NCBI GenBank assembly: GCA_965220385.1
Contig: OZ244825.1
Span: 777,142-841,141, forward strand
DNA from: Candidatus Poribacteria bacterium
GTDB lineage: Bacteria; Poribacteria; WGA-4E; PCPOR2b
Length of the DNA stretch: 64,000 nucleotides
Direction of reading: 5' to 3'
Below, piece by piece: positions 10,161-28,413 of this stretch. The notes under the pieces are model-generated. The model saw only the letters and a program-made list of their open reading frames with translations. It did not search any database and was not told the origin of the DNA. Both the position numbers and the translations under genes were made by a program. Every line of letters begins with the position of its first letter. Position 1 is the stretch's first letter.

Positions 10161-10166
10161 TTGTCA

Positions 10167-10560
10167 AAACGTAATACGTAAAGAAGATGTAACGCAAGGG
10201 GGCAAGGCCGCAAAGGAAAAAAGAGAGCGAAAAGAGAGAAGGCGGGAAAACGAGAAAACGAGAACGGAGGCATTTAGCCCCGGCGGGGCGGCATGTTTGT
10301 AGAATGTGGTATCACCCCACTAACAAAAGCCCCAGCGGGGCGACATGTGATACCGTAAAACGTAATACGTAAAGAAGATGTAACGCAAGGACGCAAAGAA
10401 AAAAAGAGAGCGAAAAGAGAGAAGGCGGGAAAACGAGAAAACGGGAACGGAAGCATTTAGCCCCAGCGGGGTGACATGTTTATAGAATGTGGTATCACCC
10501 CACTAACAAAAGCCCCGGCGGGGCGACATGTGTGTTTTCGCTCCAGCAGGACGATATGTC
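10167..10560. repeat. Two tandem copies (about 200 bp period) of a composite intergenic repeat: purine-rich tract plus MITE-like palindromic unit TTTAGCCCCGGCGGGGCGGCATGTTTGTAGAATGTGGTATCACCCCACTAACAAAAGCCCCAGCGGGGCGACATGTG
   Basis: 10167-10366 and 10367-10560 are nearly identical. The inner unit recurs at 36870-36905, 37048-37130 and 50068-50150. Confidence 0.85.
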
Positions 10561-10622: not shown

Positions 10623-12047
10623 ATGAAGATCCCAAGAGACGATAAGGTTCGTATGCTTAGATTTGCCGTACAGTTTTTGCCAGCGATGATACCTCTTTTT
10701 TTCTCCTTGTATTTCTGGAAAAAGGGGTGGACTGAGCCTGTCATAACCTTTATGTTGCTAAGTATTGGACTGATATTATTAGGGGGCTTTCTGATTCTAG
10801 TCAAGAGGATCATAGGCAACGATAGGTATTTTGTGGTTATAGGTGGCGCTCTGCTTATTCTGATAGGGTTGTATTGCTGGATAGGCAGCGGTAATATCTA
10901 TACGAGCATATTTGCTGTATTGGTCGGTATGGCTGTAATATTAGGGGAGATGTTAAAAGAAAAGCGGTGGCAGATTAGTATCACTGTTGCATTAGTGCTC
11001 GCTGTAGGCACTATCATCTATCTGGAAGAAACCAGTGAAGATAAAGGACATGCTGTCGACAGCGAGGGGGGCGTACAGCAGGAGGTCGTGGATAAAGCAT
11101 CGGCACCCAGCGATGTTCCAAGCGGTGAACCCGCAGTTTCGGCTACATCCGAACAGTCGATGACTGATATGATGAATCGGTTCTTAACTCCTGAGCAACG
11201 TGAAAATCCAACATTCCAGAAAGTAATGAAGGTTATGGAGTCCGATTCATTTCAGAAGCAGATGCAGGAACAAGATCTGCGGACACCGCAAGAATTTATT
11301 GACCTCATGGCAGCACATGGATTAACGGAGTTTGCAGAGATAGATTATGATAAAATCATGGCTGATGCCTATGCCCTTTCCGCACAACAATACGCTACCG
11401 CAAACCCCGGTAAAGACCCCGCGGACGACGATGAGGTAATGGCAAAACGAATCGGAGAAAGCCTGAAGACCGCCGATCCTGTATATGGCATAATGGAAAT
11501 TATGCAGGATCGCGAGATTGCTCTGTGGATGAGTGCCCGTTTCAAAGGGGACCAAGCTGCGATGAGTGAGTGGTTGATGCCGGTGATGAAAGGCGCCGTA
11601 TCGGCTGACTCTGCAAATTCGTCGTCCGCACCAATGGATTTTGAATTCCCCGACGGGTTTTTGTCCGATAGCCCTCCTGACGAACCCACAGAGCAGCTCC
11701 CTTTCGTAGAATCGGAACCCTTACTATCTGACCCCAGCCCGACATCAACGCGGAAAGAGCCTTCCATCCCCGACACCGAAAAGAGTTCCGCAGCAGCACC
11801 AACGGTTGAACCGGAAAAGATTCTCACTGAACTGTCTCCAGAACCGCCTGCACTCCCTACGGACGAGGAACTTGAAACGGCGTTAAGGGAACGATTTTCG
11901 CCTGAGCGTTTCGAGCGGGCAATGACAACGTTGGAGCGGTATGGACCGGAAGAGGGACTTCGCCGCCTTCGAGAGGCTGATCCGGAAATCGCCAAGCAGA
12001 TGGAACGGCGCCGCAGTAGAGAAGGTGGAGAGCAGGATTCCCGATGA
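10623..12047 (+). CDS. Polytopic membrane protein with a long acidic disordered C-terminal region ending in a conserved EEGLRRLREADPE motif
   Basis: N-terminal hydrophobic helices; the C-terminal RYGPEEGLRRLREADPEIAKQ matches the C-terminus of the 13418 protein (YGTEEGLRRLRVSDPDAARQ). Confidence 0.5.
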   Translation: MKIPRDDKVRMLRFAVQFLPAMIPLFFSLYFWKKGWTEPVITFMLLSIGLILLGGFLILVKRIIGNDRYFVVIGGALLILIGLYCWIGSGNIYTSIFAVLVGMAVILGEMLKEKRWQISITVALVLAVGTIIYLEETSEDKGHAVDSEGGVQQEVVDKASAPSDVPSGEPAVSATSEQSMTDMMNRFLTPEQRENPTFQKVMKVMESDSFQKQMQEQDLRTPQEFIDLMAAHGLTEFAEIDYDKIMADAYALSAQQYATANPGKDPADDDEVMAKRIGESLKTADPVYGIMEIMQDREIALWMSARFKGDQAAMSEWLMPVMKGAVSADSANSSSAPMDFEFPDGFLSDSPPDEPTEQLPFVESEPLLSDPSPTSTRKEPSIPDTEKSSAAAPTVEPEKILTELSPEPPALPTDEELETALRERFSPERFERAMTTLERYGPEEGLRRLREADPEIAKQMERRRSREGGEQDSR

Positions 12048-12068
12048 AAGGGAGAAGGAGATTCAGTT

Positions 12069-12446
12069 ATGCCATTTGGAGAAAAGGTGCGCGAGTATAT
12101 CCTCAGGAACGTCGGGAAGTTGGGGATCGGTTGTGGGATAGGGATGATTTTGATGGGAGCGTATATTCTGATAATAGCGAGCAATGCAGGCAGGGGGTCT
12201 ATCTTTCATCCGGGCGCGGGCTATGTCCTACTGGGTATAAGTTTCATCACCATGAATCTCTTAGAGTGGAAGCCGTTGCTGATGCTTACCTGCACTGTGG
12301 TTGCGCTTGGACTCGCGCTGTTGCTACTCGTATTCAAGCCCGGAGATGAAACCGCTGAGCGCGCGGCGGTTGTGCAGCAGGAGGCTGTGGAAGCAGCGTC
12401 AAAGCCCAATGGAGTGCTAGATGACGCGGCGTCTCTTACGCGGTAG
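12069..12446 (+). CDS. Small integral membrane protein (3 predicted TM helices)
   Basis: An AAGGAG Shine-Dalgarno precedes the ATG; hydrophobic segments; stop lies in the conserved ...TR-TAG-GG context that precedes U element 1. Confidence 0.4.
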   Translation: MPFGEKVREYILRNVGKLGIGCGIGMILMGAYILIIASNAGRGSIFHPGAGYVLLGISFITMNLLEWKPLLMLTCTVVALGLALLLLVFKPGDETAERAAVVQQEAVEAASKPNGVLDDAASLTR

Positions 12447-12454
12447 GGAGAGCA

Positions 12455-12620
12455 TCTTCAATCAATACAGCTAGCGGTATCATACTCTTGTTTACGGGCA
12501 TAATATCGCTTTTTTGTGCTCACAAAACGCCACCCTTCGATTGCCTATGATGTGAGTCGGTTAAAACGATTCAAAACCTCCGCATCTTTTTCGTGGAATA
12601 TGGTAAATCAATAAGGGACT
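12455..12620 (+). promoter_or_regulatory. U element copy 1: hairpin/T-run terminator followed by a conserved about 100 bp module ending in an extended -10-like TGGTAAAT (degenerate copy)
   Basis: Aligns to the copies at 14436, 18122 and 20062: AGCGGTATCATAC...ATGATACCGCTTTTTTTGTGCTCAC...CAAAACCTCCCCATCTTTTTATCGGAATATGGTATAATCACGCA. Confidence 0.6.
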
Positions 12621-12667
12621 ATGTGTGCTTCGTACGGTTTTTTAGGGAACAGCGCCGTGTGCGATAA

Positions 12668-12820
12668 TGTTAGTAAAAGTTACTAACATTAGTAACATTT
12701 GCTAGCAATAGTTACTAATAACCGAGTTATTTCCTTCAACGACTTTTTAGACATTTCGCGCTTGAAGCCTGATGCCCACTGGGTTTGTGCGATTTTCGTT
12801 TCTTTTGGCATGTTAATTGC
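12668..12820 (+). promoter_or_regulatory. Sigma-54 promoter unit 1: UAS of TTAGTAA/TTACTAA palindromes (12668-12720) plus -24/-12 element TGGCATGTTAATTGCT (12805-12820)
   Basis: GG and GC spaced exactly as in the TGGCAC-N5-TTGC consensus. UAS palindromes sit about 100 bp upstream, the classic enhancer-binding-protein geometry. The unit is repeated at 16371-16523 and 18313-18451. Confidence 0.7.
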
Positions 12821-12995
12821 TTCTTATGGGTCTGTGGTTGAACACTTCAACCGTAACGCGTAGCGGAAAAGCATAGATTTTCAATGATTAGCTTATTCTC
12901 AAAGTGGGTGTGCTAAGACATTTTGTGAAGTTGAAAATCTTTCCTTTCTGGCCAGAATGCTAAACGCATTCTTAACAATTCAAAGGAAAAAGCAC

Positions 12996-13322
12996 ATGAA
13001 AAACTTAGGGGTTCTCTTCTGCGCCATTTCACTCGTCATGATGATCGGCCTAATGGTCGTATTTTTTACGGAACCCGCTGAAGCAGGAGCAGACGAGAAG
13101 ATAAGGGTAAAAAATGTTGTAAAATATTACGATGACTTTGACAATTACTGCCCTAACCTTTCATACACTAGAATCACCCTTGAACCAGTTGTATACAATG
13201 GATATGGTCACTACTATAACTACCATATAATGGGTAACTCGGGACACACTAGTCACAGTTATCAGATCGTGTCATGGGTCACCATTCATACAACTTTTAC
13301 CGTTGCTAGTTGTAATACTTAA
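12996..13322 (+). CDS. Small secreted/membrane-anchored protein (N-terminal signal/TM; Tyr/His/Asn-rich C-terminal half, 2 Cys)
   Basis: MKNLGVLFCAISLVMMIGLMVVFF signal-like N-terminus; first gene downstream of sigma-54 promoter 1. Confidence 0.45.
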   Translation: MKNLGVLFCAISLVMMIGLMVVFFTEPAEAGADEKIRVKNVVKYYDDFDNYCPNLSYTRITLEPVVYNGYGHYYNYHIMGNSGHTSHSYQIVSWVTIHTTFTVASCNT

Positions 13323-13417
13323 GCATCGTTAGAAAACTAGGCAGCCCAGCCTCTACTCGTGTCTCCGTAGGGGCTGGCAAAAAAACAGTTAAGCGATTCA
13401 GAAGGGACGGTATTTTG

Positions 13418-14422
13418 ATGCGAAAGGTTGTTCTATTGATCTCCGTGATAGTTATTCTAACAGCAGGCTGGATTTTCTACCTAAACCGGGAAAAAAAGAA
13501 CTTTATAGAGAATCTACCGCAATCCCCTGCGGTTGTTAACCAACCTATTAACAGTTCCTCTTCATCAGTAAATGAAAAGGAGGATTCTAGCTACTTTGTT
13601 GAAGTGGATGGGAAGAAATTCATTCCTGATGGCCGCCTGCATAAGACACTTCCACAGGAGCAGACCGCCTCCGCAGAAAAAACGTCTTCAGAAACGCCCA
13701 CTCCAGACGAGAAAGCAGATTTTGTGCGCGACCAATGGATTCAAATGTTTGGAGACATTCCACAGGTTCATGCCGCATCTGAGTACATGAGAAAAATATA
13801 CAAACGGGAACGTATGACAATTGATGAAGAGATTGCTGGCTTAGAAGCCTCACACTACCTATTTCCAGAGGGTGGGCATGGACTAATGTTGGCAATACGA
13901 AAGACTCAGAAAGCACAGGGGCTCGACGAGGACGACTTTGAGATCGTGTATGAGGAGGATTGGGAGAATGTAAGGCCTCCGCCGGGTTATAAGGAATATC
14001 ATTTTGGGAATGTACCTGAGCATCTCCGGTCCGATACCCCTGCACCTGATAGGATTTTTTCAGAAAGCATTGATGGAGATATAGACTTTCCTCCTGCTCG
14101 TTCTGAGGGGACTCCTGTAATGCCGGAACCTAAGACCTCAGTCACGTCTGACCATGTTCACCATGGAGATAGGCATGTACACGAACCGCCCACCCTCCAA
14201 CCGCCTGCACCGACAACTGCTAAAGGTGTTGAAGCGAACGGCTGGGAGGGGTTATCGTCTAAACAACGGGAGCAGGCGAAAGCGTTCTTTGACGAATATG
14301 GCACAGAGGAAGGGCTGCGGCGGTTGAGGGTGTCTGATCCTGACGCTGCGCGTCAATTTGGGCAGGAACGGCAGAAACCGCCTATCCCTTCCGAACCAAA
14401 TGATGAATCTTCTACGCAGTAG
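13418..14422 (+). CDS. Single-pass membrane-anchored protein with a disordered Pro/Glu-rich region and C-terminal EEGLRRLR...DP motif (paralogous at the C-terminus to the 10623 protein)
   Basis: N-terminal TM VVLLISVIVILTAGWIFYL; C-terminal FFDEYGTEEGLRRLRVSDPDAARQF. Confidence 0.5.
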   Translation: MRKVVLLISVIVILTAGWIFYLNREKKNFIENLPQSPAVVNQPINSSSSSVNEKEDSSYFVEVDGKKFIPDGRLHKTLPQEQTASAEKTSSETPTPDEKADFVRDQWIQMFGDIPQVHAASEYMRKIYKRERMTIDEEIAGLEASHYLFPEGGHGLMLAIRKTQKAQGLDEDDFEIVYEEDWENVRPPPGYKEYHFGNVPEHLRSDTPAPDRIFSESIDGDIDFPPARSEGTPVMPEPKTSVTSDHVHHGDRHVHEPPTLQPPAPTTAKGVEANGWEGLSSKQREQAKAFFDEYGTEEGLRRLRVSDPDAARQFGQERQKPPIPSEPNDESSTQ

Positions 14423-14435
14423 GGGCGGGCTTAAA

Positions 14436-14585
14436 TCCATACAACAGCGGTATCATACCCTGGTTCACGGGCATGATACCGCTTTTTTTGTGCTCACAGC
14501 GTGGTGTTAGGTAGCCGAAACGCCTCAAAACCTCCCCACCTTTTCATAGGAATATGGTATAATCACGCAGGTTATTATTTGAGAG
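14436..14585 (+). promoter_or_regulatory. U element copy 2 (terminator hairpin AGCGGTATCATACCC...GGCATGATACCGCTTTTTTT plus conserved module with TGGTATAAT)
   Basis: Best-conserved copy; perfect 11 bp stem followed by T7. Confidence 0.65.
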
Positions 14586-14881
14586 ATGTGCATAATGATT
14601 GCCCCGATGCTCCCCGATGCAGAGATCTGGACAGGAGTTACGGCATACGGCGTATGCCTACTACTATGGGCGGTGCACTGGGGTACGGGTTGAGCAAGAT
14701 ACTCAACCTACGGGTGTGGTATATTGTTGGGTTTCACTGTATCTATCTATAAGGGGTTGTCGAAAGGCGAAACCGCTATTGTGTTTGATATAGATTCGCT
14801 TTCAACCATTCAACCCAATCTACGTGACCGATAAATAGATTCAAACCGTTAAAACAGTATCATGATCTTGAGTTCCTGTGC

Positions 14882-15853
14882 CTACGAAATTCCCAACTTT
14901 TCCATCTTATAGCGGAAAGTGGAGTAAGGGATGCCGAGATTTTTTGCGGCTTGAGTGCGATTCCAATGGGTTTCTTCAAGTGCCTGTGTGATCTGATCGT
15001 GCTCGCTCTCGACTGCCGATTCGTCAGGTTGTGACGGCAGTTCTTCCAATGCCTCTCCTTGAATATCAAGATGCTCGATTCCTATCAACGAGATCTTGGG
15101 TGGACAGAGAACAGCGGTGCGCTCAACGATATTTCGCAGTTCACGGATGTTGCCGGGGTATTGATAATCCAGAAGGGACGATTTAGCCCCGTCTGAAAAG
15201 CCGTCGAAGCTGCGCCCTCTTCTGGCGGTGTATGCCGCTAGGAAATGGTCCACCAACGGCAGGATATCTTCTGTTCTTTCCCTAAGCGGTGTGAGGTGGA
15301 TAGGAAAGAGGTTGAGCCGATGGAATAGATCACTGCGGAACTGTCCAGATTTGACAAGTTGTGGCGGATCTCTGTTGAATGCACTGATAATATGTGCTTG
15401 AAAGGAGATCTCCTCGGTGCCGCCAAGCCGTCTCAGCGTCCGGGTGTCGAGAACCCGCAGCAACTTAGCTTGTATGTCGAGTGGGAGGTCAGCAATTTCA
15501 TCCAGCAGAAGCGTGCCGCTATCTGCTATCTCAAAGTAGCCGGGTTTATCCGTCGTTGCATCGGTGTATGCCCCTTTGACGTGGCCAAAGAGTTCGCTTT
15601 CGACCAACGACTCTGGCAATGCCGAACAGTTGACAGCGACAAACGGCTGCTCTTCCGAAGACCCTTGAAAATGAATTGCCCGTGCGACCACCTCTTTTCC
15701 TGTGCCCGTTTCGCCGGTGAGGAGAATCGTATCAACCTTTGCTGCGACCGCCTGCCGGATGCGTTCTCGTACCTCTTGCGTAGCTGAACTATCTCCCACA
15801 AGGAATCGGTTTTGTATCCGCGGATTGTGATAGCTCGTAGATCGATTATCCAT
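14882..15853 (-). CDS. Sigma-54-dependent transcriptional activator (bacterial enhancer-binding protein) with no N-terminal regulatory domain (PspF-like architecture: AAA+ domain plus C-terminal HTH)
   Basis: GETGTGKE Walker A, ESELFGHVKGAYTDA (GAFTGA-type sigma-54 contact loop), RELRN (sensor II) and C-terminal HTH NLGIPYSTFRYKMEKLGI. The AAA+ domain starts about 40 residues from the N-terminus, so no receiver/GAF/PAS domain. Start chosen at MDNRST after an AGAGGG Shine-Dalgarno. Confidence 0.8.
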   Translation of the reverse strand: MDNRSTSYHNPRIQNRFLVGDSSATQEVRERIRQAVAAKVDTILLTGETGTGKEVVARAIHFQGSSEEQPFVAVNCSALPESLVESELFGHVKGAYTDATTDKPGYFEIADSGTLLLDEIADLPLDIQAKLLRVLDTRTLRRLGGTEEISFQAHIISAFNRDPPQLVKSGQFRSDLFHRLNLFPIHLTPLRERTEDILPLVDHFLAAYTARRGRSFDGFSDGAKSSLLDYQYPGNIRELRNIVERTAVLCPPKISLIGIEHLDIQGEALEELPSQPDESAVESEHDQITQALEETHWNRTQAAKNLGIPYSTFRYKMEKLGIS

Positions 15854-15961
15854 TTGTCCCTCTCTTCTCGATAAACGCGGCTTGACTGTTTTATCCTCAA
15901 AAGAGTTGATGTATCGCATGGTCAGCTACTTTCGAGGTTCTCCACTGTTCCCATTTCCTTT

Positions 15962-16224
15962 CTATACTTAGTAAAGGATACAGGAGGACACAGACAGGGG
16001 GCAAATTTGTTTTCTTTAGTTTGAAACAAATAGTTTCAAGTTAAAAAAAATAAATTGATTCGTCTTAAAAAATAGTTCAAGCAGCTGCCGAATTTTTGTC
16101 AAGCATGGGCGAGGTGACCTCGCCCCTACAGTTGGCTGCGTAAGTTCTATACTCAAAAGGATACAAGAGGACGCAGACAGGATGCAAATTTAAAATCTTT
16201 AGAGTTAAACCAACAGTTTAACTC
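15962..16224. promoter_or_regulatory. Two copies (about 185 bp apart) of an about 80 bp element in the divergent promoter region of the bEBP gene, each carrying a perfect palindrome (TTGAAAC-N5-GTTTCAA; GAGTTAAAC-N5-GTTTAACTC)
   Basis: 15962-16040 and 16147-16224 align (CTATACT.A..AAGGATACA.GAGGAC.CAGACAGG..GCAAATTT...). A GGCGAGGTGACCTCGCC hairpin at 16108-16125 lies between them. Confidence 0.6.
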
Positions 16225-16370
16225 CTCCAAAAATAACTCGAATGGGGTGTGGGACACCCTGTGTTGAACGCTCGCTGAGGTCGACAAGGCGGTAGGATCC
16301 CATAAAATTTATCACAGGGAGTTCGCAGCGATGAAGGTCTTTGACTCCCTCTTGGGACTTATGCAGAAAA

Positions 16371-16523
16371 GTTAGCAATAGTTGCTAACATTAGCAATAG
16401 TTGCTAAGCAACAGTTGCTAATAATTGGGTTAACCGCTTCGGCGACTTTTTGCATATTTCGCCTTGAAAGCCTGATGTCCGCTGGGTTTGTGCGATTTTC
16501 GTTGCTTTTGGCATGATAATTGC
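16371..16523 (+). promoter_or_regulatory. Sigma-54 promoter unit 2: UAS TTAGCAATAGTTGCTAACATTAGCAATAGTTGCTAAGCAACAGTTGCTAA (16371-16430) plus -24/-12 TGGCATGATAATTGC (16509-16523)
   Basis: Consensus spacing exact; three TTAGCAA-N3-TTGCTAA palindromes about 90-140 bp upstream. Confidence 0.75.
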
Positions 16524-16656
16524 CCCTTATGAGTTTGTGGTTGAACCTTTCAACCATGATAAAGGATTTTCGATAGGTAGCGATTTGAATTATGAGTACA
16601 CAAGCATTGTATTGTGCAAATCGTAACACCACACACTTAATGAGAGGAGAGATACG

Positions 16657-17421
16657 ATGAAAACCATATTTGACGTGCTTCGTCACCCGCTGGTTATCGG
16701 TGCACTCGTATTGAGCATCCTCATTGTGGTAGGTGTGTATTTCGGAAGCCATTGGTACTATGGTGATGTTGAACCAGTTGAAATGCCGGAGGTTTCTGCA
16801 CCTGCTCCGCCCCTGCCTAAAAATCTTTCCGTCTCTGAAGTTGATTTGAGTGGTCTGGATGGGGAATCATCCCCACCGCAAACGGAATCAGAGCCTACAG
16901 TTTCGTCTGTGGAAGGCGAGTCGGTCGATGATTTCTTGGCAGAGCTATCGGATGAGGAGATGGCTCTGTTGACAGCTGAGGTGGTGGAACCTCAACGGGT
17001 TTCTCCCTTTGGCTTTGGTCCATATCCCCAAGTACCTTCAGATTTTCCCGAAGATCCCATTTGGGAAGAAGATATGGAAGCAAATATCTCACAATTTGGC
17101 AGCGAAGCGATGAAGGAAGCAGAATTGATGGATCGGGTTTTAATTCAACTCTGGAATCAGGGACATCGTGCTACTTCTGCGTCAAAGCACAGTAACGGGC
17201 TCGTCTATCCATCATTTCCCAACACGGTCTTTGTCCGATGGGACTACATAGAGGAAGAAGATGGGACAATTACTAAATATGCAAGGAGAATATCTAGTGG
17301 TGCGGAGGTATCAGATAGTGACCTTAATGATTTAGGGGAAGGGATTATTCCGCCCGGCATAAAGGTGCTTGACTATGATTCAGATGGAATAAATCCCTAC
17401 ACTTTTTTGAATCTTAACTAA
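16657..17421 (+). CDS. Single-pass membrane-anchored protein, family A (N-terminal TM, Pro/Ser/Glu-rich linker, conserved about 140 aa C-terminal domain ending PYTFLNLN)
   Basis: 77% paralog of the 18587 protein; GAGGAGAG Shine-Dalgarno; no recognisable domain. Confidence 0.6.
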   Translation: MKTIFDVLRHPLVIGALVLSILIVVGVYFGSHWYYGDVEPVEMPEVSAPAPPLPKNLSVSEVDLSGLDGESSPPQTESEPTVSSVEGESVDDFLAELSDEEMALLTAEVVEPQRVSPFGFGPYPQVPSDFPEDPIWEEDMEANISQFGSEAMKEAELMDRVLIQLWNQGHRATSASKHSNGLVYPSFPNTVFVRWDYIEEEDGTITKYARRISSGAEVSDSDLNDLGEGIIPPGIKVLDYDSDGINPYTFLNLN

Positions 17422-17435
17422 TAAGGAGAAATAAG

Positions 17436-17804
17436 ATGCGTAAACATTTTTTGGGTGTCTTGATAATCTGCTTTTTGTCTGTTTTTTCCGTGCTTTCTTT
17501 TGCAAAAAAATCCGGGCCGCTAACAGCTGAAGCTTCTATATACAAAAAACGAACACAGACAGTAGCCAAGGCGAAGGTTCAGGCGACAGTTGCAGCAAGG
17601 CATGGGGCGTGGGCAATATCCGCTGTCTCAGGGAATAACTCTGATGGCGATGCTGGACACTATCGATACGGACTATCTACCCAAGTTGTACACCCAAAAG
17701 ATTACACCTCACGCGCGTCAAATGCGAGGGCTAGCGCGTGGATTTCTGGACACGATCGGCATGGCAAGGCTTGGTTTGTACAAGATTCAAAACCTGACAA
17801 CTAG
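17436..17804 (+). CDS. Small secreted protein, family B (Sec signal peptide; mature about 95 aa with ...ASAWISGHDRHG... motif)
   Basis: MRKHFLGVLIICFLSVFSVLSFA signal peptide; TAAGGAG Shine-Dalgarno; homologous to the 19369 protein (shared NSDxD...TS.A.A.(A/S)WI(S/T)G(H/Y)(D/N)RH). Confidence 0.55.
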   Translation: MRKHFLGVLIICFLSVFSVLSFAKKSGPLTAEASIYKKRTQTVAKAKVQATVAARHGAWAISAVSGNNSDGDAGHYRYGLSTQVVHPKDYTSRASNARASAWISGHDRHGKAWFVQDSKPDN

Positions 17805-18121
17805 TATTTGGTGTTCGCAGACGTTTAACAGACCGGGGGTGTACCTTCAGATTTGAGGATATGCCCTCTTTTTTATGCTCCGTTTGCTCTAAACTTAATC
17901 AGCAGTTTTCCGAGGATACCAGCAATATCACGCGATAGCAGCATACCAGATTCTATAGCGCAATCTTCCGGACTGATTGAGCTAGGATTACTGCGCTACA
18001 GTCCGGGTATTTTCAGTTCACTAGAGACTCTAGCATAACGTGCTGGGTATTTGCGATTGGCGATCTGAAGGGGAACGACGCGAGTCGCTTGTTCATTCCG
18101 GTACGCAGTAGGGTAAACGTC

Positions 18122-18265
18122 TTCAATTAACACAACTAGCGGTATCATATCTTTTTTAGGGTTATGATACCGCTCTTTTGTGCTCACGGCGTGGCGTGAG
18201 TCAGCTAAAGCACCTCAAAACCTCCCCATCTTTTTATCGGAATACGGTATAATTACCAGGCTGCT
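18122..18265 (+). promoter_or_regulatory. U element copy 3
   Basis: AGCGGTATCATATC...GTTATGATACCGCTCTTTTGTGCTCACGGCGTGGCGTGAGTCAGCTAAAGCACCTCAAAACCTCCCCATCTTTTTATCGGAATACGGTATAAT. Confidence 0.65.
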
Positions 18266-18312
18266 ACTCGTGCTTCATGCGGCTTTCCAGAAACATCGGT
18301 GTGTGCAGAAAA

Positions 18313-18451
18313 GTTAGTAATTGTTGCTAACATTAGCAACAGTTGCTAATAATTGGGTTAACCGCTTCGGCGACTTTTTGCATATTTCGCCTTGAAAGCC
18401 TGATGTCCGCTGGGTTTGTGCGATTTTCGTTTCTTTTGGCATGTTAATTGC
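18313..18451 (+). promoter_or_regulatory. Sigma-54 promoter unit 3: UAS palindromes (18313-18350) plus -24/-12 TGGCATGTTAATTGC (18437-18451)
   Basis: About 95% identical to unit 2 over roughly 280 bp, including the long leader. Confidence 0.75.
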
Positions 18452-18586
18452 TTCTTATGAGTCTGTGGTTGAACCCTTCAACCATGATAAAGGATTTTCG
18501 ATAGGTAGCGATTTGAATTATAAGTACACAAGCACTGTACCGTGTAATTTCTAACACTGTACACTTAAATGAGAGGAGAGCGTACG

Positions 18587-19357
18587 ATGAAAACGGTACT
18601 TGACCTGCTTCGTCACCCGTTGGTTCTCGGTGCACTCGTATTGAGCATCCTCATTGTGGTTGGTGTGTATTTCGGAAGCCATTGGTACTATGGTGATGTT
18701 GAACCAGTTGAGATACCGGAGATCTCCGCTCCTACTCCCGCCCTGCCTAAAAAATCTGCCTCCTCTGAAGTTGATTTGAGTGGCTTACAAGGGGAATCAT
18801 TGACACTGGAAACGGAATCAACGCCTACAGCACCGTCTATGGCAGTCGAGTCGGTCGATGATTTCTTAGCAGAGCTATCGGCTGAAGAGAAAGTACTGTT
18901 GACGGCGGAAGTGGTGGAAGATACGCAGCCGGTTTCCCCATTCGGTTTTGGTCCATATCCCCAAGTACCTTTAGACTTTCCCAGAGATCCCATCTGGGAA
19001 GCAGTCGAGATGTACGAAAAAATCAATCAACATGGACGTGGTATGATGAAGGCAATAGAATTGATGGATCGGGTTGTAATAAAACTCTGGAATCAGGGGC
19101 ATAGAGCAAGCTCTGCGTCAATGAGTAAAGGACGCGTCTATCCGGGATTTCCCAACACGGTTTATGTCCGATGGAGTTACATTGAAGAACCAGATGGGAC
19201 AATTACTCGATATGCAGGACGAAAAACGAGTGGGCCGGACATCCCCGAAAGTGTCTTTGATGCTTTAAGTGAGGGGATTGTCCCACCCGGCATAACCGTA
19301 CTTGATCATGATGCTGATGGAATAGATCCTTACACTTTTTTGAATCTTAATCAATAA
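18587..19357 (+). CDS. Single-pass membrane-anchored protein, family A (paralog of the 16657 protein)
   Basis: MKTVLDLLRHPLVLGALVLSILIVVGVYFGSHWYYGDVEPVE... is near-identical at the N-terminus and conserved in the C-terminal domain. Confidence 0.6.
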   Translation: MKTVLDLLRHPLVLGALVLSILIVVGVYFGSHWYYGDVEPVEIPEISAPTPALPKKSASSEVDLSGLQGESLTLETESTPTAPSMAVESVDDFLAELSAEEKVLLTAEVVEDTQPVSPFGFGPYPQVPLDFPRDPIWEAVEMYEKINQHGRGMMKAIELMDRVVIKLWNQGHRASSASMSKGRVYPGFPNTVYVRWSYIEEPDGTITRYAGRKTSGPDIPESVFDALSEGIVPPGITVLDHDADGIDPYTFLNLNQ

Positions 19358-19368
19358 GGAGAAATAAA

Positions 19369-19767
19369 ATGCGTATACGTTTTTGGGTCGGTTCGATAAT
19401 CTGCCTTGGTTCAATAATCTGTCTTTTGGTTACTTTTTCCGTACTTACCTCGATAAGCCACGCGGCAGGTTGTGACGAGTCAGAGTGTGACGAAGGGGTC
19501 TGTGCTAGTGCGAGGATAAGTGGTGGGGCAGAGCTAAAAGCAAGAGGGGTCGTGCGTGCTCCGAACAACTGTTGGGGCGGCTGGGGGATAAACGTGCGCG
19601 CTGGAACTAACAGTGACAGCGATTCAGACTATTACACAGGTGGGACAAGGAACGATCTGGAGGTTAAGCAGCATACGAGCCAAGCGAAAGCAACCTCGTG
19701 GATTACTGGGTATAATAGGCATGACGAGTCTTATTATGCCAATGCCTGTGATGAGTCTGGTGGTTGA
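19369..19767 (+). CDS. Small secreted Cys-rich protein, family B (paralog of the 17436 protein)
   Basis: Signal peptide, 6 Cys, conserved ...ATSWITGYNRHDES... motif; identical TAAGGAGAAATAAAATG ribosome-binding-site context to the 17436 gene. Confidence 0.55.
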   Translation: MRIRFWVGSIICLGSIICLLVTFSVLTSISHAAGCDESECDEGVCASARISGGAELKARGVVRAPNNCWGGWGINVRAGTNSDSDSDYYTGGTRNDLEVKQHTSQAKATSWITGYNRHDESYYANACDESGG

Positions 19768-19892
19768 TTCATCTGCAAAGCACGGACTGTTGACATTTTG
19801 TGCTTGAGATTTGTATAGTAACAGCGATTTCGCCGGAGTAGGCTTGTTAGGTATTGCTTAACAAGTTCAAGTTTTTTACAAACCCATATCAT

Positions 19893-19950
19893 AAAAAACG
19901 GGATGGATACCGTATCGCCTATCTTGTGGTGTCCAACCCGTTTTTTGTGC
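19893..19950. terminator. Bidirectional rho-independent terminator hairpin (AAAAAACGGGATGGATACC...GGTGTCCAACCCGTTTTTT)
   Basis: 13-14 bp imperfect stem flanked by an A-run and a T-run, downstream of the 19369 gene. Confidence 0.55.
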
Positions 19951-20061
19951 CCAAGATCCGAAAAAACTTCATATTTCCCCTGTGGATGTTTCTTTACGTC
20001 CGGTGATGAAATATCTCTAGTTAAAAGGGAGTCTGCGCTCTTGACACAGTAGGGCTGTGTC

Positions 20062-20212
20062 CTAAATCAATACAACCCGCGGCATCATACTCTTTTTTCA
20101 GGGGATATGATACCGCTTTTTTTGTGCTCACAGCGTGGCGTGAGTCGGCTAAAGTGCTTCAAAACCTCCCCATCTTTTTATCGGAATATGGTATAATCAC
20201 GCAAGTTGTTAT
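20062..20212 (+). promoter_or_regulatory. U element copy 4, immediately upstream of the sucC-like gene
   Basis: CGCGGCATCATAC...GATATGATACCGCTTTTTTTGTGCTCACAGCGTGGCGTGAGTCGGCTAAAGTGCTTCAAAACCTCCCCATCTTTTTATCGGAATATGGTATAATCACGCA. Confidence 0.65.
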
Positions 20213-20230
20213 CTATCAGAAGGGAAAGCG

Positions 20231-21430
20231 ATGAGACTCCTCGAACATCAAAGCAAAAAATTACTCTCCAACTTCGGATTAGCTTTCACGGACTCGACGC
20301 TGGTTAACTCAATGGGTGAGGTGCGAGCAACCGTTGAGCGTGTCGGGCTGCCCGTTGTCCTGAAGGCGCAGACCCCTTTCGGTGGACGTGGGAACATCGG
20401 GGCGGTGAAGTTCGCGGAGACCGTGGATCAAGCCGTCATCGCGGCAAAGGCTTTGTTCGGGATGGACGTGCGCGGCACAATCGTTGACGTGGTTTCGATT
20501 GAACCGAGGCTAAACTACGAACGCGAGTTTTACGTTGGTATTACATGGGATACGGTCGCAAAGCTGCCGGTTGTACTATTGAGCCTCGCCGGTGGTGTGG
20601 ATGTTGAATCCTCCCAGAGCGATCAGGGCGCACGTCAGTCATTTGACCCGTGGACGGGACTCGCACCTTATGAGGCGAGAGGATTGGCCGCCAAAGTTGG
20701 ATTAACGGGAAAAACCTTCTTGGGAGTCGGGGATACTCTTACCAAGTTGTCGGGAGCGTTTCTCGCCTGCGATGCCGTCACGATGGAGATCAATCCGTTA
20801 GTCGTTATCGAGGACGAGACACTTATCGGGCTTGATGCGCGCCTAGAGATTGAGGACGAGGCGGTGTATCGGCAGCGGAAACGGTTGGAGCCGTTGGGCG
20901 AACTGACGGTGACCGCAGCGGGTCGTCCGCCCACGCCTCTGGAACTGGAGGCACAACGTATCGATGCAATAGACCATCGGGGCGTTGCCGGACGCGTGGT
21001 CGAATTTGACGGCGATCTCGCCCTCCTGATCGGTGGCGGCGGCGCAAGCCTGACCGTTTTCGACGCAATCAAAGCGCACGGCGGAAGTCCGGCGAACTAC
21101 TGCGAAGTAGGCGGAAACCCGACGGAGGAGAAGGTTGCTGCCATAACATCGCTCCTGCTATCAAAGCCGGGAGTGAAGGGGCTGGCAGTTATCATGAATG
21201 TGGTCAACAACACCCGTGCGGATGTCATCGCTCGCGGTGTCCTCATGGGGGTCGAGACCGCAGGAAGAAAACCCGCGGAGACAATCAGCCTCTTCCGTGT
21301 CCCCGGCAACTGGGAGGCGGAAGCGCGGGAGATCATGGAGGCAGCCGGCGTCGAAGTCTACGGACGCGAGGTGTCGTTAGATACGGCTGCCCGGTTGGCT
21401 GTTGAAAGGAATCGCGCCCATGCTGCTTGA
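20231..21430 (+). CDS. ADP-forming succinyl-CoA synthetase beta-subunit-like ATP-grasp protein (SucC/MtkA/CcsA family)
   Basis: N-terminus MRLLEHQSKKLLSNFGL...VVLKAQ...GGRG pattern matches SucC; translationally coupled to the alpha-like subunit. Confidence 0.7.
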   Translation: MRLLEHQSKKLLSNFGLAFTDSTLVNSMGEVRATVERVGLPVVLKAQTPFGGRGNIGAVKFAETVDQAVIAAKALFGMDVRGTIVDVVSIEPRLNYEREFYVGITWDTVAKLPVVLLSLAGGVDVESSQSDQGARQSFDPWTGLAPYEARGLAAKVGLTGKTFLGVGDTLTKLSGAFLACDAVTMEINPLVVIEDETLIGLDARLEIEDEAVYRQRKRLEPLGELTVTAAGRPPTPLELEAQRIDAIDHRGVAGRVVEFDGDLALLIGGGGASLTVFDAIKAHGGSPANYCEVGGNPTEEKVAAITSLLLSKPGVKGLAVIMNVVNNTRADVIARGVLMGVETAGRKPAETISLFRVPGNWEAEAREIMEAAGVEVYGREVSLDTAARLAVERNRAHAA

Positions 21431-22307
21431 CCCGAAGGGGGGTGTTCTCGTGCAGGGGATCACCGGCAGGGAAGCGAGCCGTATGGTCGAAGACTCGCTC
21501 GCCTACGGGAGTAACATCGTCGCCGGTGTAACACCCGGTAAGGGAGGACAGGGCGTCCACGGAGTGCCCGTCTACGACACAGTCGCAGCAGCGGTTGAGA
21601 AGCATCGCCCAACGATCAGCATTATCTCTGTTCCGCCTCCCGCCGTGCTTGATGCCGCCCTCGAATCCTTCTCCGCCGGTATGCAGCTCTGTCTGATTAT
21701 GACGGAGCGTGTCCCACAACTGGACACCAGTAAATTACTGATCGCCGCCCGCTGCACCGGTTGCACCGTCATCGGTCCCAATTCGTTGGGGCTGATCCGT
21801 CCGGGAATTGCGAAACTCGGCACCATCGGCGGTCGCGTGGATAATGTGCGACGTTCCTTTATGCCGGGCAAGGTCGCTGTGCTATCTCGCAGCGGTGGTA
21901 TGACCACCGAGATCGCCAGCTATCTGACCAGTCGTGGCGTGGGGCAGAGTATCGCTATCGGCGTGGGCGGGGATGCACTCATCGGCTCCAATTTCACGGA
22001 ACTGATTGAACGCCTTGAGGCGGATCCCGACACGGATGCTGTAGTTATCTATGGGGAGCCGGGCGGGGCTGCGGAGGAGCAGCTCGCAGCGCGAATGAAG
22101 CAAAAATCGTCCCGACTCCGAATAGTTGCCTTTCTGTCCGGCAGCTTCGTTGATGACCTCGAAGGTGTACGGTTCGGTCATGCCGGGGTGATCGTCGAAG
22201 GGGGACGCGGATCAGTTCGTGGGAAGGTGAAAGCCCTCCGTGAAGCCGGAATATTTGTAGCAGAGACGTTTGAGGACATTTTACACGGGCTTGAACCTGA
22301 TGCGTAG
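21420..22307 (+). CDS. Succinyl-CoA synthetase alpha-subunit-like CoA-binding protein (SucD family)
   Basis: VLVQGITGREAS...GVTPGKGG...IGPNSLGLIRPG motifs; ATG overlaps the upstream stop (ATGCTGCTTGA). Confidence 0.7.
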   Translation: MLLDPKGGVLVQGITGREASRMVEDSLAYGSNIVAGVTPGKGGQGVHGVPVYDTVAAAVEKHRPTISIISVPPPAVLDAALESFSAGMQLCLIMTERVPQLDTSKLLIAARCTGCTVIGPNSLGLIRPGIAKLGTIGGRVDNVRRSFMPGKVAVLSRSGGMTTEIASYLTSRGVGQSIAIGVGGDALIGSNFTELIERLEADPDTDAVVIYGEPGGAAEEQLAARMKQKSSRLRIVAFLSGSFVDDLEGVRFGHAGVIVEGGRGSVRGKVKALREAGIFVAETFEDILHGLEPDA

Positions 22308-22399: not shown

Positions 22400-24682
22400 A
22401 TGAACTCTTGGTACAGTATTAAAGGACTGGTTCGGTATTTATCCGCCATCCTTCTATTTGCCCTGTTCATATATCTACCTGCTGCACATTCACAGCAATT
22501 TATAGCGAAGGACGGGGAAATTCGCGGGACGGTCTATGGTCAAGAGGCGAGCGAGCCGTTAGTGGACGCTACCGTCCGATTGGTCGAAAGCGACCGAGTG
22601 ACGCTGACCGATGATAAGGGTGGATTTCGATTCGAGGATCTGTCTCCCGGCGATTATACATTGGCTGTGATTGCCATCGGTTATCGTCTCCTTGAGGAGA
22701 ACAACGTCGCTATGGTGAAGTCGGGCGAGGTGACTGAGGTCGAGATTTATCTTGCCCCGGTCGATACGATCTTAGATGAGGTCGAGGTCAGATCGCGGTC
22801 CATACCGACGACCGTCGGTAGGCAGACCGTAGGCGTCATGGAGATTAAACGGATCCCCGGCAGCGCAGGGGACGCACTCCGAGCACTCCAGGCGTTGCCG
22901 GGGATCGGTGTCGCAAGTGATTTCGACGGTCAACTCTATATCCGCGGCGGTGCCCCCGACGACAACCGGTTTTACCTTGATCGTGCCCCTCTCTTTTATC
23001 CCTACCACTTTGGTGGCTTGGTCTCAACTATCAATTCAGAGGTGCTCAACCGGATTGATGTCTACGCCGGCGGATTCGGAGCGGAGTTTGGAGCGGACGC
23101 CCAAGCCGTAATAGACATCTATTCGCGGCGTGGCAGGGAAGATCGGATAGGCGGCAAATTTAACGTGAACCTCCTCTATTCCGAGGGGTTGGTTGAAGGA
23201 CCGATTGGAGGGCGCGGGTCCTGGTATCTCGCAGGGCGGCGAAGCTATGTCGACCTCTTCCTGATGGAGACTACCCAGATCACGGCGTTTCCGCGATTCT
23301 GGGACTATCAGGCGAAGGTCAGCTACGATCTCTCTGACAATCACCAATTCGACGTTAAGGCGTTCGCCGCGGGCGATGTCATGGGGTTTAAGTTGGGTTT
23401 AGAAGATGTTGATTATGATCCAACGCTCGCAGGAAGGTTCGACCTTGAAGGGCGATTTGGTGTGCAAGCCGCGGATCTCAGATCAACACTGACCGACCGC
23501 CTCACTTCGCATCTCTCCGTCTCGCGTGCGACTTTCTTACAAGCCTTTAGCTTCGGTCAAGGCCTTTTCCTGCGACTGGAGCCGATCCAGTACGAAGTCC
23601 GCGAGGACCTCGCCTACCGCTTGAATTCGCAACATCAGCTTGAATCGGGGCTGCTTGTTTCTACGGCGCAGTGGAACGGATCCGCCAACTTTCCTCGCCG
23701 CGCCGATGAAGGGGACCCGCAGGCGACCGAATCTCAATTCTTCACCTTTGCGGAAAAGATCTCTGTAGATTTTGCCGAACGGTTCAACGTCATTGAGGGG
23801 TATCTCCAGAATCGGTATGACCCGTTTGCGTTCTTATCGCTTACGTTAGGGCTGCGGCTGGACTATTTTAACCTTACCGATCGCGTCTCCGTGGGACCGC
23901 GGGGCAGCCTTCAATTCAATATACCGGGCGGTTCAGAGCTCCGCTTTGCCTACGGTAGATACGAGATTAGTCCTTATCCATGGCAAATTATCCCGGGATA
24001 CGGAAATCCGGAGGTGAAGGAGAATACGGCGACCCATTATATCCTGGAATTGGAACGGGAAATTAGCGCCCAAACACGGCTCAAGGTTGCCGGTTATCAG
24101 AAAGATTTTAGAGACCTAATTACCCGTGATCAGGTCGCGGGATACCTGAATCAAGGACAGGGCTACGCGCGTGGGATTGAAATTTCTCTCAAACATCGTG
24201 CCGGCGACCGATTCTTCGCTTGGGCGAACTACGGCTACTCTGTTTCTAAACGCGAAGACCGGCCCGGCGATCCAGAGCGACTCTATTCGTTTGATCAGCC
24301 CCACGTCGCAACGCTCACAGCAAGCTATCTGATCACACCGACATGGGAGATCGGTGCGAAGTGGCAGTATCGCTCCGGGCTGCCCTACACGCCGGTAGTC
24401 GGTCGGGAGATTCGACGCCATCCAGATACAGGTCGCCCCCGCTACAGTCCTCTCTTCGGCGAAACGAACACGGCGCGGGTACCGCCGTTCCACCGCTTGG
24501 ACATCCGTATCAGCAAGTCGTTCATCTATCAGCGTTGGCGATGGAGCATCTTCCTTGAGGTACTTAATGCATATAATCGCAAGAATGTGTTAGATGTTGA
24601 TTACAACAGAAGCTACACAGAGGAGCGATACCTCTACCAATTGCCCATAGTCCCGTATCCGGGGATAACGGTTGAGTTCTAA
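22400..24682 (+). CDS. TonB-dependent-receptor-like outer-membrane protein (CarboxypepD_reg domain, plug, beta-barrel; C-terminal Phe)
   Basis: Signal peptide; GTVYG...TVRLVESDRVTLTDDKGGFRFEDLSPGDYTLAV (CarbopepD_reg); RIPGSAGDALRALQALPGI plug; ends ...GITVEF. Confidence 0.7.
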   Translation: MNSWYSIKGLVRYLSAILLFALFIYLPAAHSQQFIAKDGEIRGTVYGQEASEPLVDATVRLVESDRVTLTDDKGGFRFEDLSPGDYTLAVIAIGYRLLEENNVAMVKSGEVTEVEIYLAPVDTILDEVEVRSRSIPTTVGRQTVGVMEIKRIPGSAGDALRALQALPGIGVASDFDGQLYIRGGAPDDNRFYLDRAPLFYPYHFGGLVSTINSEVLNRIDVYAGGFGAEFGADAQAVIDIYSRRGREDRIGGKFNVNLLYSEGLVEGPIGGRGSWYLAGRRSYVDLFLMETTQITAFPRFWDYQAKVSYDLSDNHQFDVKAFAAGDVMGFKLGLEDVDYDPTLAGRFDLEGRFGVQAADLRSTLTDRLTSHLSVSRATFLQAFSFGQGLFLRLEPIQYEVREDLAYRLNSQHQLESGLLVSTAQWNGSANFPRRADEGDPQATESQFFTFAEKISVDFAERFNVIEGYLQNRYDPFAFLSLTLGLRLDYFNLTDRVSVGPRGSLQFNIPGGSELRFAYGRYEISPYPWQIIPGYGNPEVKENTATHYILELEREISAQTRLKVAGYQKDFRDLITRDQVAGYLNQGQGYARGIEISLKHRAGDRFFAWANYGYSVSKREDRPGDPERLYSFDQPHVATLTASYLITPTWEIGAKWQYRSGLPYTPVVGREIRRHPDTGRPRYSPLFGETNTARVPPFHRLDIRISKSFIYQRWRWSIFLEVLNAYNRKNVLDVDYNRSYTEERYLYQLPIVPYPGITVEF

Positions 24683-26484: not shown

Positions 26485-26520
26485 GAATCTTGACTCCTTA
26501 AAATTTAGGCTAAAGGTGAA

Positions 26521-28356: not shown

Positions 28357-28413
28357 GATTTTGCTTCCTTTACAGTTTAGAGTGAGATAGTCATGCAATT
28401 CATCAAAAGTGAT

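Follow-up and report, generated by a model that had tools for sequence, protein, structure and literature searches.

A repeated terminator and promoter spacer beside a sucCD-like operon of Candidatus Poribacteria, probably multiplied by segmental duplication

Introduction

Segmental or tandem duplication with novel junctions and promoter capture underlies the amplification and divergence of paralogue arrays. A different kind of short intergenic repeat is represented by the Correia elements of Neisseria and other miniature inverted-repeat transposable elements (MITEs), which have terminal inverted repeats and target duplications and occur in tens to hundreds of dispersed copies. Here we describe a repeat, designated U, that is present in four copies (U1–U4) in a 64-kb stretch of the genome of a member of Candidatus Poribacteria (contig OZ244825.1, positions 777,142 to 841,141, forward strand; hereafter the window), where it lies among cassettes of genes for membrane-anchored or secreted proteins and next to a sucCD-like operon. 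The Poribacteria are an uncultivated phylum of sponge symbionts, and we know of no experimental promoter data for them. A search of the literature on Poribacteria in combination with sigma-54 or tandem duplication returned nothing relevant.

U is most likely the native spacer before the sucCD-like operon, consisting of the terminator of the preceding gene and the promoter of the operon, which has been multiplied by segmental duplication and recombination. The observations that carry this explanation are the orthologous position of the spacer in other Poribacteria, the pattern of selection on its copies, the variable junctions of the duplicated segments, the promoters that the cassettes themselves carry and a second locus where the same cassettes occur without U; the order and mechanism of the duplication events we infer from them.

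Materials and methods

Copies of U were sought with an nhmmer profile built from the four window copies. In addition, 185,579 species genomes were scanned for the exact 24-base core pattern TCAAAACCTCCNCANCTTTTNNNNGGAATA. Matches to this pattern were found in nine genomes besides that of the window, most of them near-complete single-record assemblies of 5.1–6.8 Mb. The Poribacteria loci used for comparison are labelled L001–L015, of which L013–L015 were added after the species-genome scan. Selection was assessed by comparing nine sucC-proximal copies with eight extra copies, and identities given by block are mean pairwise identities among the nine sucC-proximal copies. A simple sigma-70 and terminator consensus scan was uninformative for U and flagged neither its promoters nor its hairpins, because U has no −35 hexamer and its hairpin loops exceed 8 nucleotides (nt).

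Results

Four direct copies of U in the window

The nhmmer search of the window returned exactly four matches (E = 4e-50 to 3e-55) to a module of ~150–180 nt. A repeat finder (repeat families D4, D6 and D7) and a four-way alignment likewise showed four direct copies, at the places where a first, sequence-only reading of this DNA had put them (Table 1). A 38-nt promoter core had three matches in the window at up to three mismatches, against 0.00 expected from shuffles. All copies open at a stop codon in the context TAC(G/A)C(A/G)GTAGGG, and after the stop follow a hairpin, a T-run, GTGCTCAC, a variable stretch, TCAAAACCTCC(C/G)CA(T/C)CTTTT and finally GGAATA(T/C)GGTA. The stop marks the conserved gene 3′ end that the sequence-only reading had noticed before each copy. 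U1 and U2 follow intact genes, encoding proteins of 125 and 335 amino acids (aa) respectively; before U3 there is a remnant of ~55 nt of a 335-like gene (~18056–18111, stop 18109–18111), and before U4 a gene remnant of only ~10 nt (stop 20050–20052).

Two features that had been ascribed to every copy do not hold throughout. The copies were thought to be a fixed unit of 150 bp, but U1 and U3 have in common a contiguous block of 400 nt that runs through a sigma-54 promoter (12455–12852 and 18120–18483), and the homology of U3 to U4 covers 142 nt only. Each copy was also thought to end in an extended −10 element. This is correct for U2 and U4, the only two of the four in which TGNTATAAT is present exactly; U3 has lost the TG motif, its −10 region reading CGGTATAAT, and U1 has lost the hexamer, with the sequence TGGTAAATC and three of six matches to TATAAT. 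U1 has changes at 5 of 59 otherwise invariant promoter positions, and its closest copy is that of L003 (84%).

U occupies an orthologous position upstream of sucC

The species-genome scan identified ten loci, all in metagenome-assembled genomes of Candidatus Poribacteria; an exact-pattern scan of metagenome contigs gave 0 matches. In 9 of 11 exact matches the module was followed by ATGAGACTCCTCGAACATCAAAGC, a sucC-like start, 30–35 nt after TATAAT, and in these nine the gene before the module ended in ...SSTQ or ...SSTR. The exact matches in the nine other genomes were all located in a sucC-adjacent array, except for the copy at L001. A search of related genomes had been proposed as a check on the sequence-only reading; by exact pattern it recovers copies confined to Poribacteria and, L001 excepted, to the neighbourhood of sucC. 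The promoter half of U stood directly before sucC in 12 of 12 loci that contained the sucC 5′ end, including L013–L015.

Loci with more blocks stacked upstream of sucC also have more copies of U. One copy is present in L002 and L008, with the order lyase, 474-aa gene, 125-aa gene, U and sucC; in L004 (lyase, 335-like gene, U, sucC); in L013 and L015 (lyase, activator gene on the reverse strand, one cassette, U, sucC); and in L014, where a cassette is followed by the promoter half of U only and then sucC. As L014 keeps the promoter half alone, the terminator and promoter halves are separable. Two copies are present in L005 (one cassette, damaged U, 335-like gene, U, sucC), in L006 (fragment of a 335 gene, U, the first ~59 codons of sucC, cassette, U, sucC) and in L010 (cassette, fragment of a 335 gene, U, 15 codons of sucC, 335-like gene, U, sucC). 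L009 contains at least three, with three 335-like genes each followed by U and the last U followed by a 56-codon sucC fragment and a cassette, and the window contains four.

Two of these loci have insertions of their own. In L013 an insertion sequence with a DDE_Tnp_1 transposase (11430–12206), unrelated to U, splits a hairpin downstream of the 132-aa gene. In L015 an insert of ~130 nt (~11040–11165), flanked by the inverted repeats GAGAAACCGAGTTTTT...AAAAACTCGGTTTCT, lies between the −10 element and the sucC start.

Promoter half and selection on the copies

The motif TGnTATAAT was invariant in all nine sucC-proximal orthologues, and in U4 it is located 33 nt upstream of the sucC-like ATG at 20231. 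Identity was 0.894 for the whole 85-nt promoter module, 0.978 for the block at −21 to −4, 0.942 for the block at −45 to −30 and 0.94 for the T-run plus GTGCTCAC. The corresponding values for sucC codon positions 1, 2 and 3 were 0.885, 0.922 and 0.706, so that the module is constrained about as strongly as non-synonymous sites. The extra copies (n = 8) differed from this pattern: at the 59 positions invariant in the proximal copies they had 1–15 changes (mean 5.5), compared with 0–2 changes (mean 1.1 per 60 positions) in a leave-one-out comparison among the proximal copies, and the −10 element or its spacing was lost in U1, L005a and L009a. Their hairpin positions, by contrast, were unchanged in seven of the eight. 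This fits relaxed constraint on redundant promoters, with the terminators still useful or recently copied.

Based on its position and apparent purifying selection, U4 very probably serves the sucCD-like operon as its promoter region, as had been predicted for the last copy. The window had 6 occurrences of TGNTATAAT where 1.15 were expected, and two other sites were 38 and 55 nt upstream of the starts of open reading frames (ORFs). Judging from this enrichment and placement, promoters with an extended −10 and no clear −35 are apparently normal in this genome. The conserved block at −45 to −26 is possibly an activator site or a lineage-specific −35 or UP element.

Three other readings of the promoter half were considered and rejected. 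A 36-codon ORF starting with GTG and ending at the sucC ATG has its frame broken by a 20-nt indel in L003, L007 and U1. On inspection, TGGTATAATCACGCA as a sigma-54 promoter has a GG-to-GC spacing that is off by one and lacks TTGC. An inverted repeat CTCAC...GTGAG is weak as an operator because its second half-site varies (GTGAG, GTTAG, GTCAG).

The terminator half

The hairpin has a stem of 13–16 bp, followed by a run of T6–7 on the coding strand, and is situated downstream of the stop codon. Its folding energies were −23.7 kcal/mol in U2 (z = −5.7), −19.8 kcal/mol in U3 (z = −6.1) and −17.1 kcal/mol in U4 (z = −3.3); the hairpin of U1, with two mismatches, was weaker (−10.7 kcal/mol, z = −1.4). 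In an alignment of 17 copies, 93.7% of the stem cells were paired, against 23–52% in slid controls. In line with the function suggested for it in the sequence-only reading, the hairpin with its T-run looks like a Rho-independent terminator of the upstream gene.

The cassettes have their own sigma-54 promoters

The sigma-54 −24/−12 pattern TGGCATGNTAATTGC had three matches in the window, at 12806, 16509 and 18437. Two or three palindromes of the form TTAGYAA-N3-TTRCTAA were found ~90–120 nt upstream of each, giving 16 strand-matches against 0.13 expected, all of them at the three cassette regulatory regions. The stretch from the activator sites to the promoter was conserved in other genomes, and the regulon of sigma-54 promoters and palindromes was conserved in L005, L006, L007, L009, L010, L013 and L015. 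Each cassette thus has its own sigma-54 promoter and activator sites, and U is not needed to drive it; the proposal that each module provides the promoter for the next cassette was not borne out. U2 faces the 3′ end of the convergent gene for a sigma-54 activator. This activator has no sensor or receiver domain, and the PspF profile aligns with it from its position 1. The predicted U2 promoter points into ~300 nt of unassigned sequence (14586–14881), beyond which lies the 3′ end of the activator gene; if active, it would yield an antisense or interfering transcript against the activator.

The cassette proteins are membrane-anchored or secreted and had no significant family match in Pfam, PADLOC or NCBIfam; the 335-aa protein gave two chance-level NCBIfam matches (~18 bits, with curated cut-offs of 80 and 756.5). 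Orthologues of the cassette 1 genes were present in L006 and L009. The family of the 262-aa protein of cassette 3 has at least 512 homologues; no Pfam domain was found in any of them, and those few that bear a name in the source records are called hypothetical. The closest database homologue was P0001, 100% identical over 98% of the length. An AlphaFold model of this family had a mean predicted local distance difference test score of 70.8 and a confident C-terminal domain, and no match in PDB at E <= 0.001. The 335-aa protein and the 474-aa protein (10623–12047) have a C-terminal motif of ~50 aa in common, YG-x-EEGLRRLR-x2-DP, which is preceded by a membrane anchor at the N-terminus and a linker of low complexity. 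The 335-like family is tandemly amplified in L009 (three copies).

Junctions and exchange of duplicated segments

The right-hand junctions of the repeated segments fell at four or more different breakpoints. In U1 and U3 the junction was ~20 nt past the −10 element, common to both and including a private 8-nt insertion, and in U2 it was ~25 nt past the −10 element. In L009b and L010a it was at sucC nucleotide 46, the same in two genomes, and in L006a and L009c at about sucC codon 55–59. The sucC fragment of L006a and L009c was joined to sequence homologous to the intergenic region between the activator gene and a cassette, at a point ~110 nt before the activator sites. The left flanks varied from a gene remnant of ~10 nt or ~55 nt to a whole gene, and 3′-end remnants of 335-like genes precede both U3 and L010a. 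Junctions as variable as these speak against a site-specific mechanism of any kind.

Cassettes 2 and 3 are paralogous over 1.1 kb (82% identity), and their second genes, of 122 and 132 codons, encode proteins with ~32% amino-acid identity. The U copies in the window were 73–84% identical to each other, and for each of them a copy from another genome was equally close or closer; the nearest outside copies were L003 for U1 (84%), L008 for U3 (87%) and L005b for U4 (87%). Sub-segments of a single copy can have different nearest neighbours. The left flank of the array was closest to L002 (88–96% nucleotide identity, against 76–87% for others); at sucC this advantage was gone (85%, against 82–86%), indicating a mosaic seam. 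A unit of the 132-aa gene, spacer and U is common to U4 in the window and Ua in L005, but is followed by different sequence in each. Together, the mosaic of nearest relatives and the shared unit with different sequels point to old duplications with added homologous recombination and lateral exchange across this locus. The copies of U with their conserved flanks are obvious substrates for crossovers.

A second cassette locus without U

Tandem arrays of the same cassette family were found at a second locus, in L011 (10001–16185) and L012 (10001–13038), with two to five pairs of genes. Each pair encodes an anchored protein of ~255 aa and a secreted protein of ~125 aa, and the arrays are beside genes for an extracytoplasmic function (ECF) sigma factor and a small protein of 82–90 aa, with no sigma-54 activator at these loci. 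Searches with nhmmer found no U in L011 at E <= 10, nor in L011 or L012 at E <= 1; the repeated spacers of these arrays are of other sequence. That the same cassette family is arrayed without U means that U belongs to the neighbourhood of sucC and not to the cassettes.

Neighbouring genes and repeats

The genes of the operon named 'sucCD' scored well below the NCBIfam cut-offs for succinate-CoA ligase (227 against 370 and 263 against 353), and precomputed Pfam matches on the orthologues in L013 and L015 included Citrate_bind. A gene for a CitE-like acyl-CoA lyase (9282–10160) borders the variable region opposite sucC and is two genes away from it in cassette-free genomes. The sucCD-like pair may not be canonical SucCD but, together with the lyase, form a CoA-ligase/lyase pathway for a different dicarboxylate.

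Downstream of the 132-aa gene, the stretch 19790–19950 contains a near-consensus sigma-70 promoter, TTGACA-18-TATAGT (11 of 12 matches), followed by two hairpins (19841–19867 and, with a T-run, 19890–19949). Homologous spacers separate cassettes in L011, L013 and L014, and there the promoter stands before the next cassette; in the window it precedes nothing. Either the promoter is a relic or the stretch gives a short non-coding transcript of ~130 nt.

Two intergenic stretches are repetitive. Between the CitE-like gene and the 474-aa gene (10160–10535) there are two tandem purine-rich units, 94% identical and with a period of 183–191 nt, each of which holds two GC-rich hairpins (GCCCCGGCGGGGC). 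Between the activator gene and the regulatory region of cassette 2 (15955–16330) there is a partial tandem repeat with a period of 183 nt (~80% over 64 nt), and the palindromes TTGAAAC...GTTTCAA and GTTAAAC...GTTTAAC in this stretch could be further regulator sites. A kinship of the two repeats was tested, and they are unrelated. Beyond the operon, two large proteins with cohesin, dockerin, Laminin_G_3, FlgD_ig and Por_Secre_tail domains are encoded at 24706–28398 (reverse strand), downstream of a TonB-dependent-receptor-like gene (22400–24682).

Table 1. Coordinates of the U copies, cassettes and adjacent genes in the window
Feature	Coordinates	Strand	Details
Upstream genes	10623..12446	+	474-aa protein and 125-aa membrane protein
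U1	12431..12628	+	nhmmer E = 3.9e-50
U1, gene end and hairpin			last codons and stop (12444–12446) of the 125-aa membrane-protein gene; weakened hairpin 12473–12510
U1, promoter module			20-nt insertion; degenerate −10 TAAATC at 12604–12609
Cassette 1, regulatory region	12670..12820	+	three palindromes 12670–12718; sigma-54 promoter TGGCATGTTAATTGC 12806–12820
Cassette 1, genes	12957..14422	+	121-aa secreted protein 12957–13322; 335-aa membrane-anchored protein 13415–14422
U2	14408..14585	+	stop 14420–14422 of the 335-aa gene; hairpin 14446–14483 with T7 run
U2, promoter module			intact TGGTATAAT at 14555–14563
Sigma-54 activator, 345 aa	14882..15919	-	AAA+ PF00158 3.7e-62; HTH_8 PF02954 9.9e-14
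Cassette 2	16372..17804	+	activator sites 16372–16421; sigma-54 promoter 16509–16523
Cassette 2, genes		+	254-aa gene 16657–17421; 122-aa gene 17436–17804
U3	18097..18272	+	hairpin 18138–18174; −10 TATAAT at 18248–18253, TG motif lost (CGG)
Cassette 3	18314..19767	+	activator sites 18314–18349; sigma-54 promoter 18437–18451
Cassette 3, genes		+	262-aa gene 18569–19357 (probable start 18587); 132-aa gene 19369–19767
U4	20038..20218	+	sucC-adjacent copy in the orthologous position; hairpin 20079–20116 with T7 run
U4, promoter parts			conserved blocks −45 to −30 (20159–20179); extended −10 TGGTATAAT at 20189–20197
sucCD-like CoA-ligase operon	20231..22307	+	beta subunit 20231–21430; alpha subunit 21402–22307

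Discussion

The favoured explanation can be set out as follows. Across Poribacteria the spacer would natively separate a small membrane-protein gene, of the 125-aa or 335-aa family, from the sucCD-like operon. Its first part would be a Rho-independent terminator ending the upstream gene, and its second part a promoter region of 85 nt, with conserved blocks directly behind the T-run and at about −45 to −30, and with the extended −10 element ~33 nt upstream of the ATG. Between the CitE-like lyase gene and sucC there would be a hypervariable hotspot for cassettes of orphan proteins that depend on sigma-54 and its activator. Blocks of this interval would have been amplified repeatedly by segmental (tandem) duplication, each duplicated segment starting upstream of the regulatory region of a cassette and having its right end in the 5′ untranslated region or early coding region of sucC, so that the downstream sucC stayed intact and a stub remained upstream. 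Each event would leave an extra spacer flanked by two stubs of variable length, to the left one from the upstream gene and to the right one from the sucC leader or coding sequence, and homologous recombination and lateral exchange between lineages would have reshuffled the blocks afterwards. In the window this would have produced the four copies found at the boundaries of three cassettes. Full constraint would act on the sucC-adjacent copy only, with the upstream copies keeping their terminators and losing promoter features, and as direct repeats the copies could feed further expansion, deletion and exchange. The notion of a boundary module is retained in so far as the copies do sit at the seams of blocks; it does not hold as a self-contained mobile element, the ends being variable.

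Several points weigh against this explanation. The L001 copy, on the same chromosome as L009 (OZ220744.1), may be the left edge of the same array or a second locus, and an exact-pattern scan would miss diverged copies elsewhere in the same genomes. U3 is 84–87% identical to other copies despite the divergence (~32%) of the 122-aa and 132-aa paralogues, which means that U3 is either still constrained, or was converted, or was acquired later than the neighbouring paralogues. The hairpin positions are unchanged in 7 of 8 extra copies, which hints that these are not purely decaying junk. Covariation in the hairpin was not above the shuffle control (118–120 of 500 shuffles reach it), so that support for the stem comes from pairing and thermodynamics. 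The U promoter has no recognisable −35 hexamer and was not flagged by a simple sigma-70 scan. Finally, both the terminator and the promoter activity of U are predictions from sequence.

The strongest competitor is that U is a dedicated recombination module, providing integron-like homology arms, without an integrase, for gaining, losing and swapping sigma-54 cassettes. It would accommodate the observation that the copies are located exactly at the seams of segments with closest relatives in different genomes: U1 and the left flank resemble L002 and L003, cassette 1 resembles L006 and L009, and cassette 3 resembles L013, L014 and L005, while the 262-aa gene, 132-aa gene, spacer and U are followed by sucC in the window and in L013, but by another 335 gene and U in L005. 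The window copies are also no closer to each other than to copies of other genomes, and the invariance of the hairpin in most extra copies speaks for it too. However, its breakpoints vary and show no fixed crossover site, promoter features decay in the extra copies, and cassette arrays elsewhere expand without U. Moreover, any duplicated sequence recombines, and no selection for that role need therefore be assumed; we regard a dedicated role as rather unlikely. A variant in which the sucC-proximal spacer was co-opted as a landing pad, with extra promoters giving basal expression independent of sigma-54, appears similarly doubtful. For this variant, the copies of L009b and L010a directly precede a 335-like gene, for which they may serve as promoter; U2, on the other hand, aims at the 3′ end of a convergent gene and not at a cassette. 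The related suggestion of a cassette-shuffling site of the integron attC type was not supported. No integrase or recombinase was found in Pfam scans of the locus and the ORFs ~10 kb to each side, where the Pfam content consisted of metabolic genes, the enhancer-binding protein and cohesin/dockerin proteins; the core site RYYYAAC was present in none of the four copies, GTTRRRY was present once, in U2 only, and there is no constant crossover point.

That U might be a small non-autonomous mobile element, MITE- or Correia-like, with a terminator and an outward promoter and inserting between genes, is suggested by the four intergenic copies of similar size, each with a hairpin and a promoter-like −10. 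Yet the longest exact terminal inverted match was 3–5 nt, no target-site duplications (direct flanks of 4–10 nt) were found, and Pfam showed no transposase in the locus or the ORFs ~10 kb to each side. All copies have one orientation at one locus, with no further copies in the 64-kb window, exact matches elsewhere are in the sucC-adjacent array (L001 excepted), and the variable ends include pieces of flanking genes; a mobile origin is hardly credible on these grounds. Almost as improbable is a function of the 85-nt module in RNA, as a small RNA or structured leader or through its CCTCC tract as an anti-Shine-Dalgarno sequence, two ideas raised in the sequence-only reading. Such a function would account for the strong conservation (0.89 mean pairwise identity) and for the tract itself (ACCTCC). 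However, Rfam gave 0 matches at gathering thresholds in the window and none at E <= 1 in any U copy; the only match at E <= 1 over 12000–20600 was a sub-gathering one to the S4-Bacteroidia leader (E = 0.15) at 15844–15884, outside U. A transfer RNA and transfer-messenger RNA scan gave no matches. Neither strand of the module folded better than shuffles (z = +0.10 and +0.53), and the RNAalifold covariation term was −1.04 kcal/mol, with compensatory pairs in the terminator stem only. The CCTCC tract is located at about −39 to −34, counted back from the putative −10, in the −35 region of the DNA; as this is ahead of the predicted transcription start, RNA made from this promoter would not include it.

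With segmental duplication of the sucC spacer as the preferred explanation, the findings require no new mechanism. They illustrate that what appears to be a designed boundary module of terminator and promoter can come from ordinary segmental duplication beside a conserved operon. Four observations help to tell the two apart: the repeat holds an orthologous position in relatives, its junctions vary, its redundant copies decay, and other arrays of the same genes lack it. The analysis also yields a well-supported candidate promoter/terminator pair in Poribacteria, and delimits a hypervariable, recombination-prone locus of orphan envelope-protein cassettes under sigma-54/PspF-like control, with the same cassette family under ECF-sigma control at a second locus. 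If instead the copies do serve as recombination pads, the array would act like an integron without an integrase, in which duplicated sucC promoters serve newly arrived blocks.

Comparison with known systems

Like Correia elements and MITEs, U is short and intergenic and can supply promoter and terminator signals to its neighbours; unlike them, it has no terminal inverted repeats or target duplications and is confined to one locus. The array resembles integron cassettes with attC sites in that U separates successive short cassettes of one orientation beside a fixed anchor. It differs from an integron in lacking an integrase, R''/R' core sites and a constant recombination point, in that its cassettes carry their own promoters, and in that U is the native upstream region of the adjacent operon. 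As in the PspF system, the cassettes have promoters of the form TGGCATG-N4-TTGC ~90–120 nt downstream of two to three palindromes, and a local activator without a sensor domain; unlike in that system, the targets are orphan membrane-anchored or secreted proteins and not psp genes, and no PspA-like partner was identified.

U itself has the parts of a terminator followed by an extended −10 sigma-70 promoter, with a GC-containing stem, T6–7 and TGnTATAAT 33 nt before the start codon. It departs from a typical sigma-70 promoter in having no −35 hexamer and, at −45 to −26, the conserved sequence TCAAAACCTCC(C/G)CATCTTTT. The best match is with segmental duplication: the cargo is paralogous, a flanking non-coding repeat is carried along, homology runs into the flanking genes, copy number tracks the duplicated blocks, and junctions are specific to the event and located inside a gene that is intact downstream. 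Redundant regulatory copies decay, and the direct repeats permit later expansion or deletion. The locus differs from plain segmental duplication in that the repeat is the whole terminator and promoter spacer of a housekeeping-type operon, and so looks designed, and in that its segments differ in their nearest relatives, so that lateral exchange seems to be superimposed on duplication.

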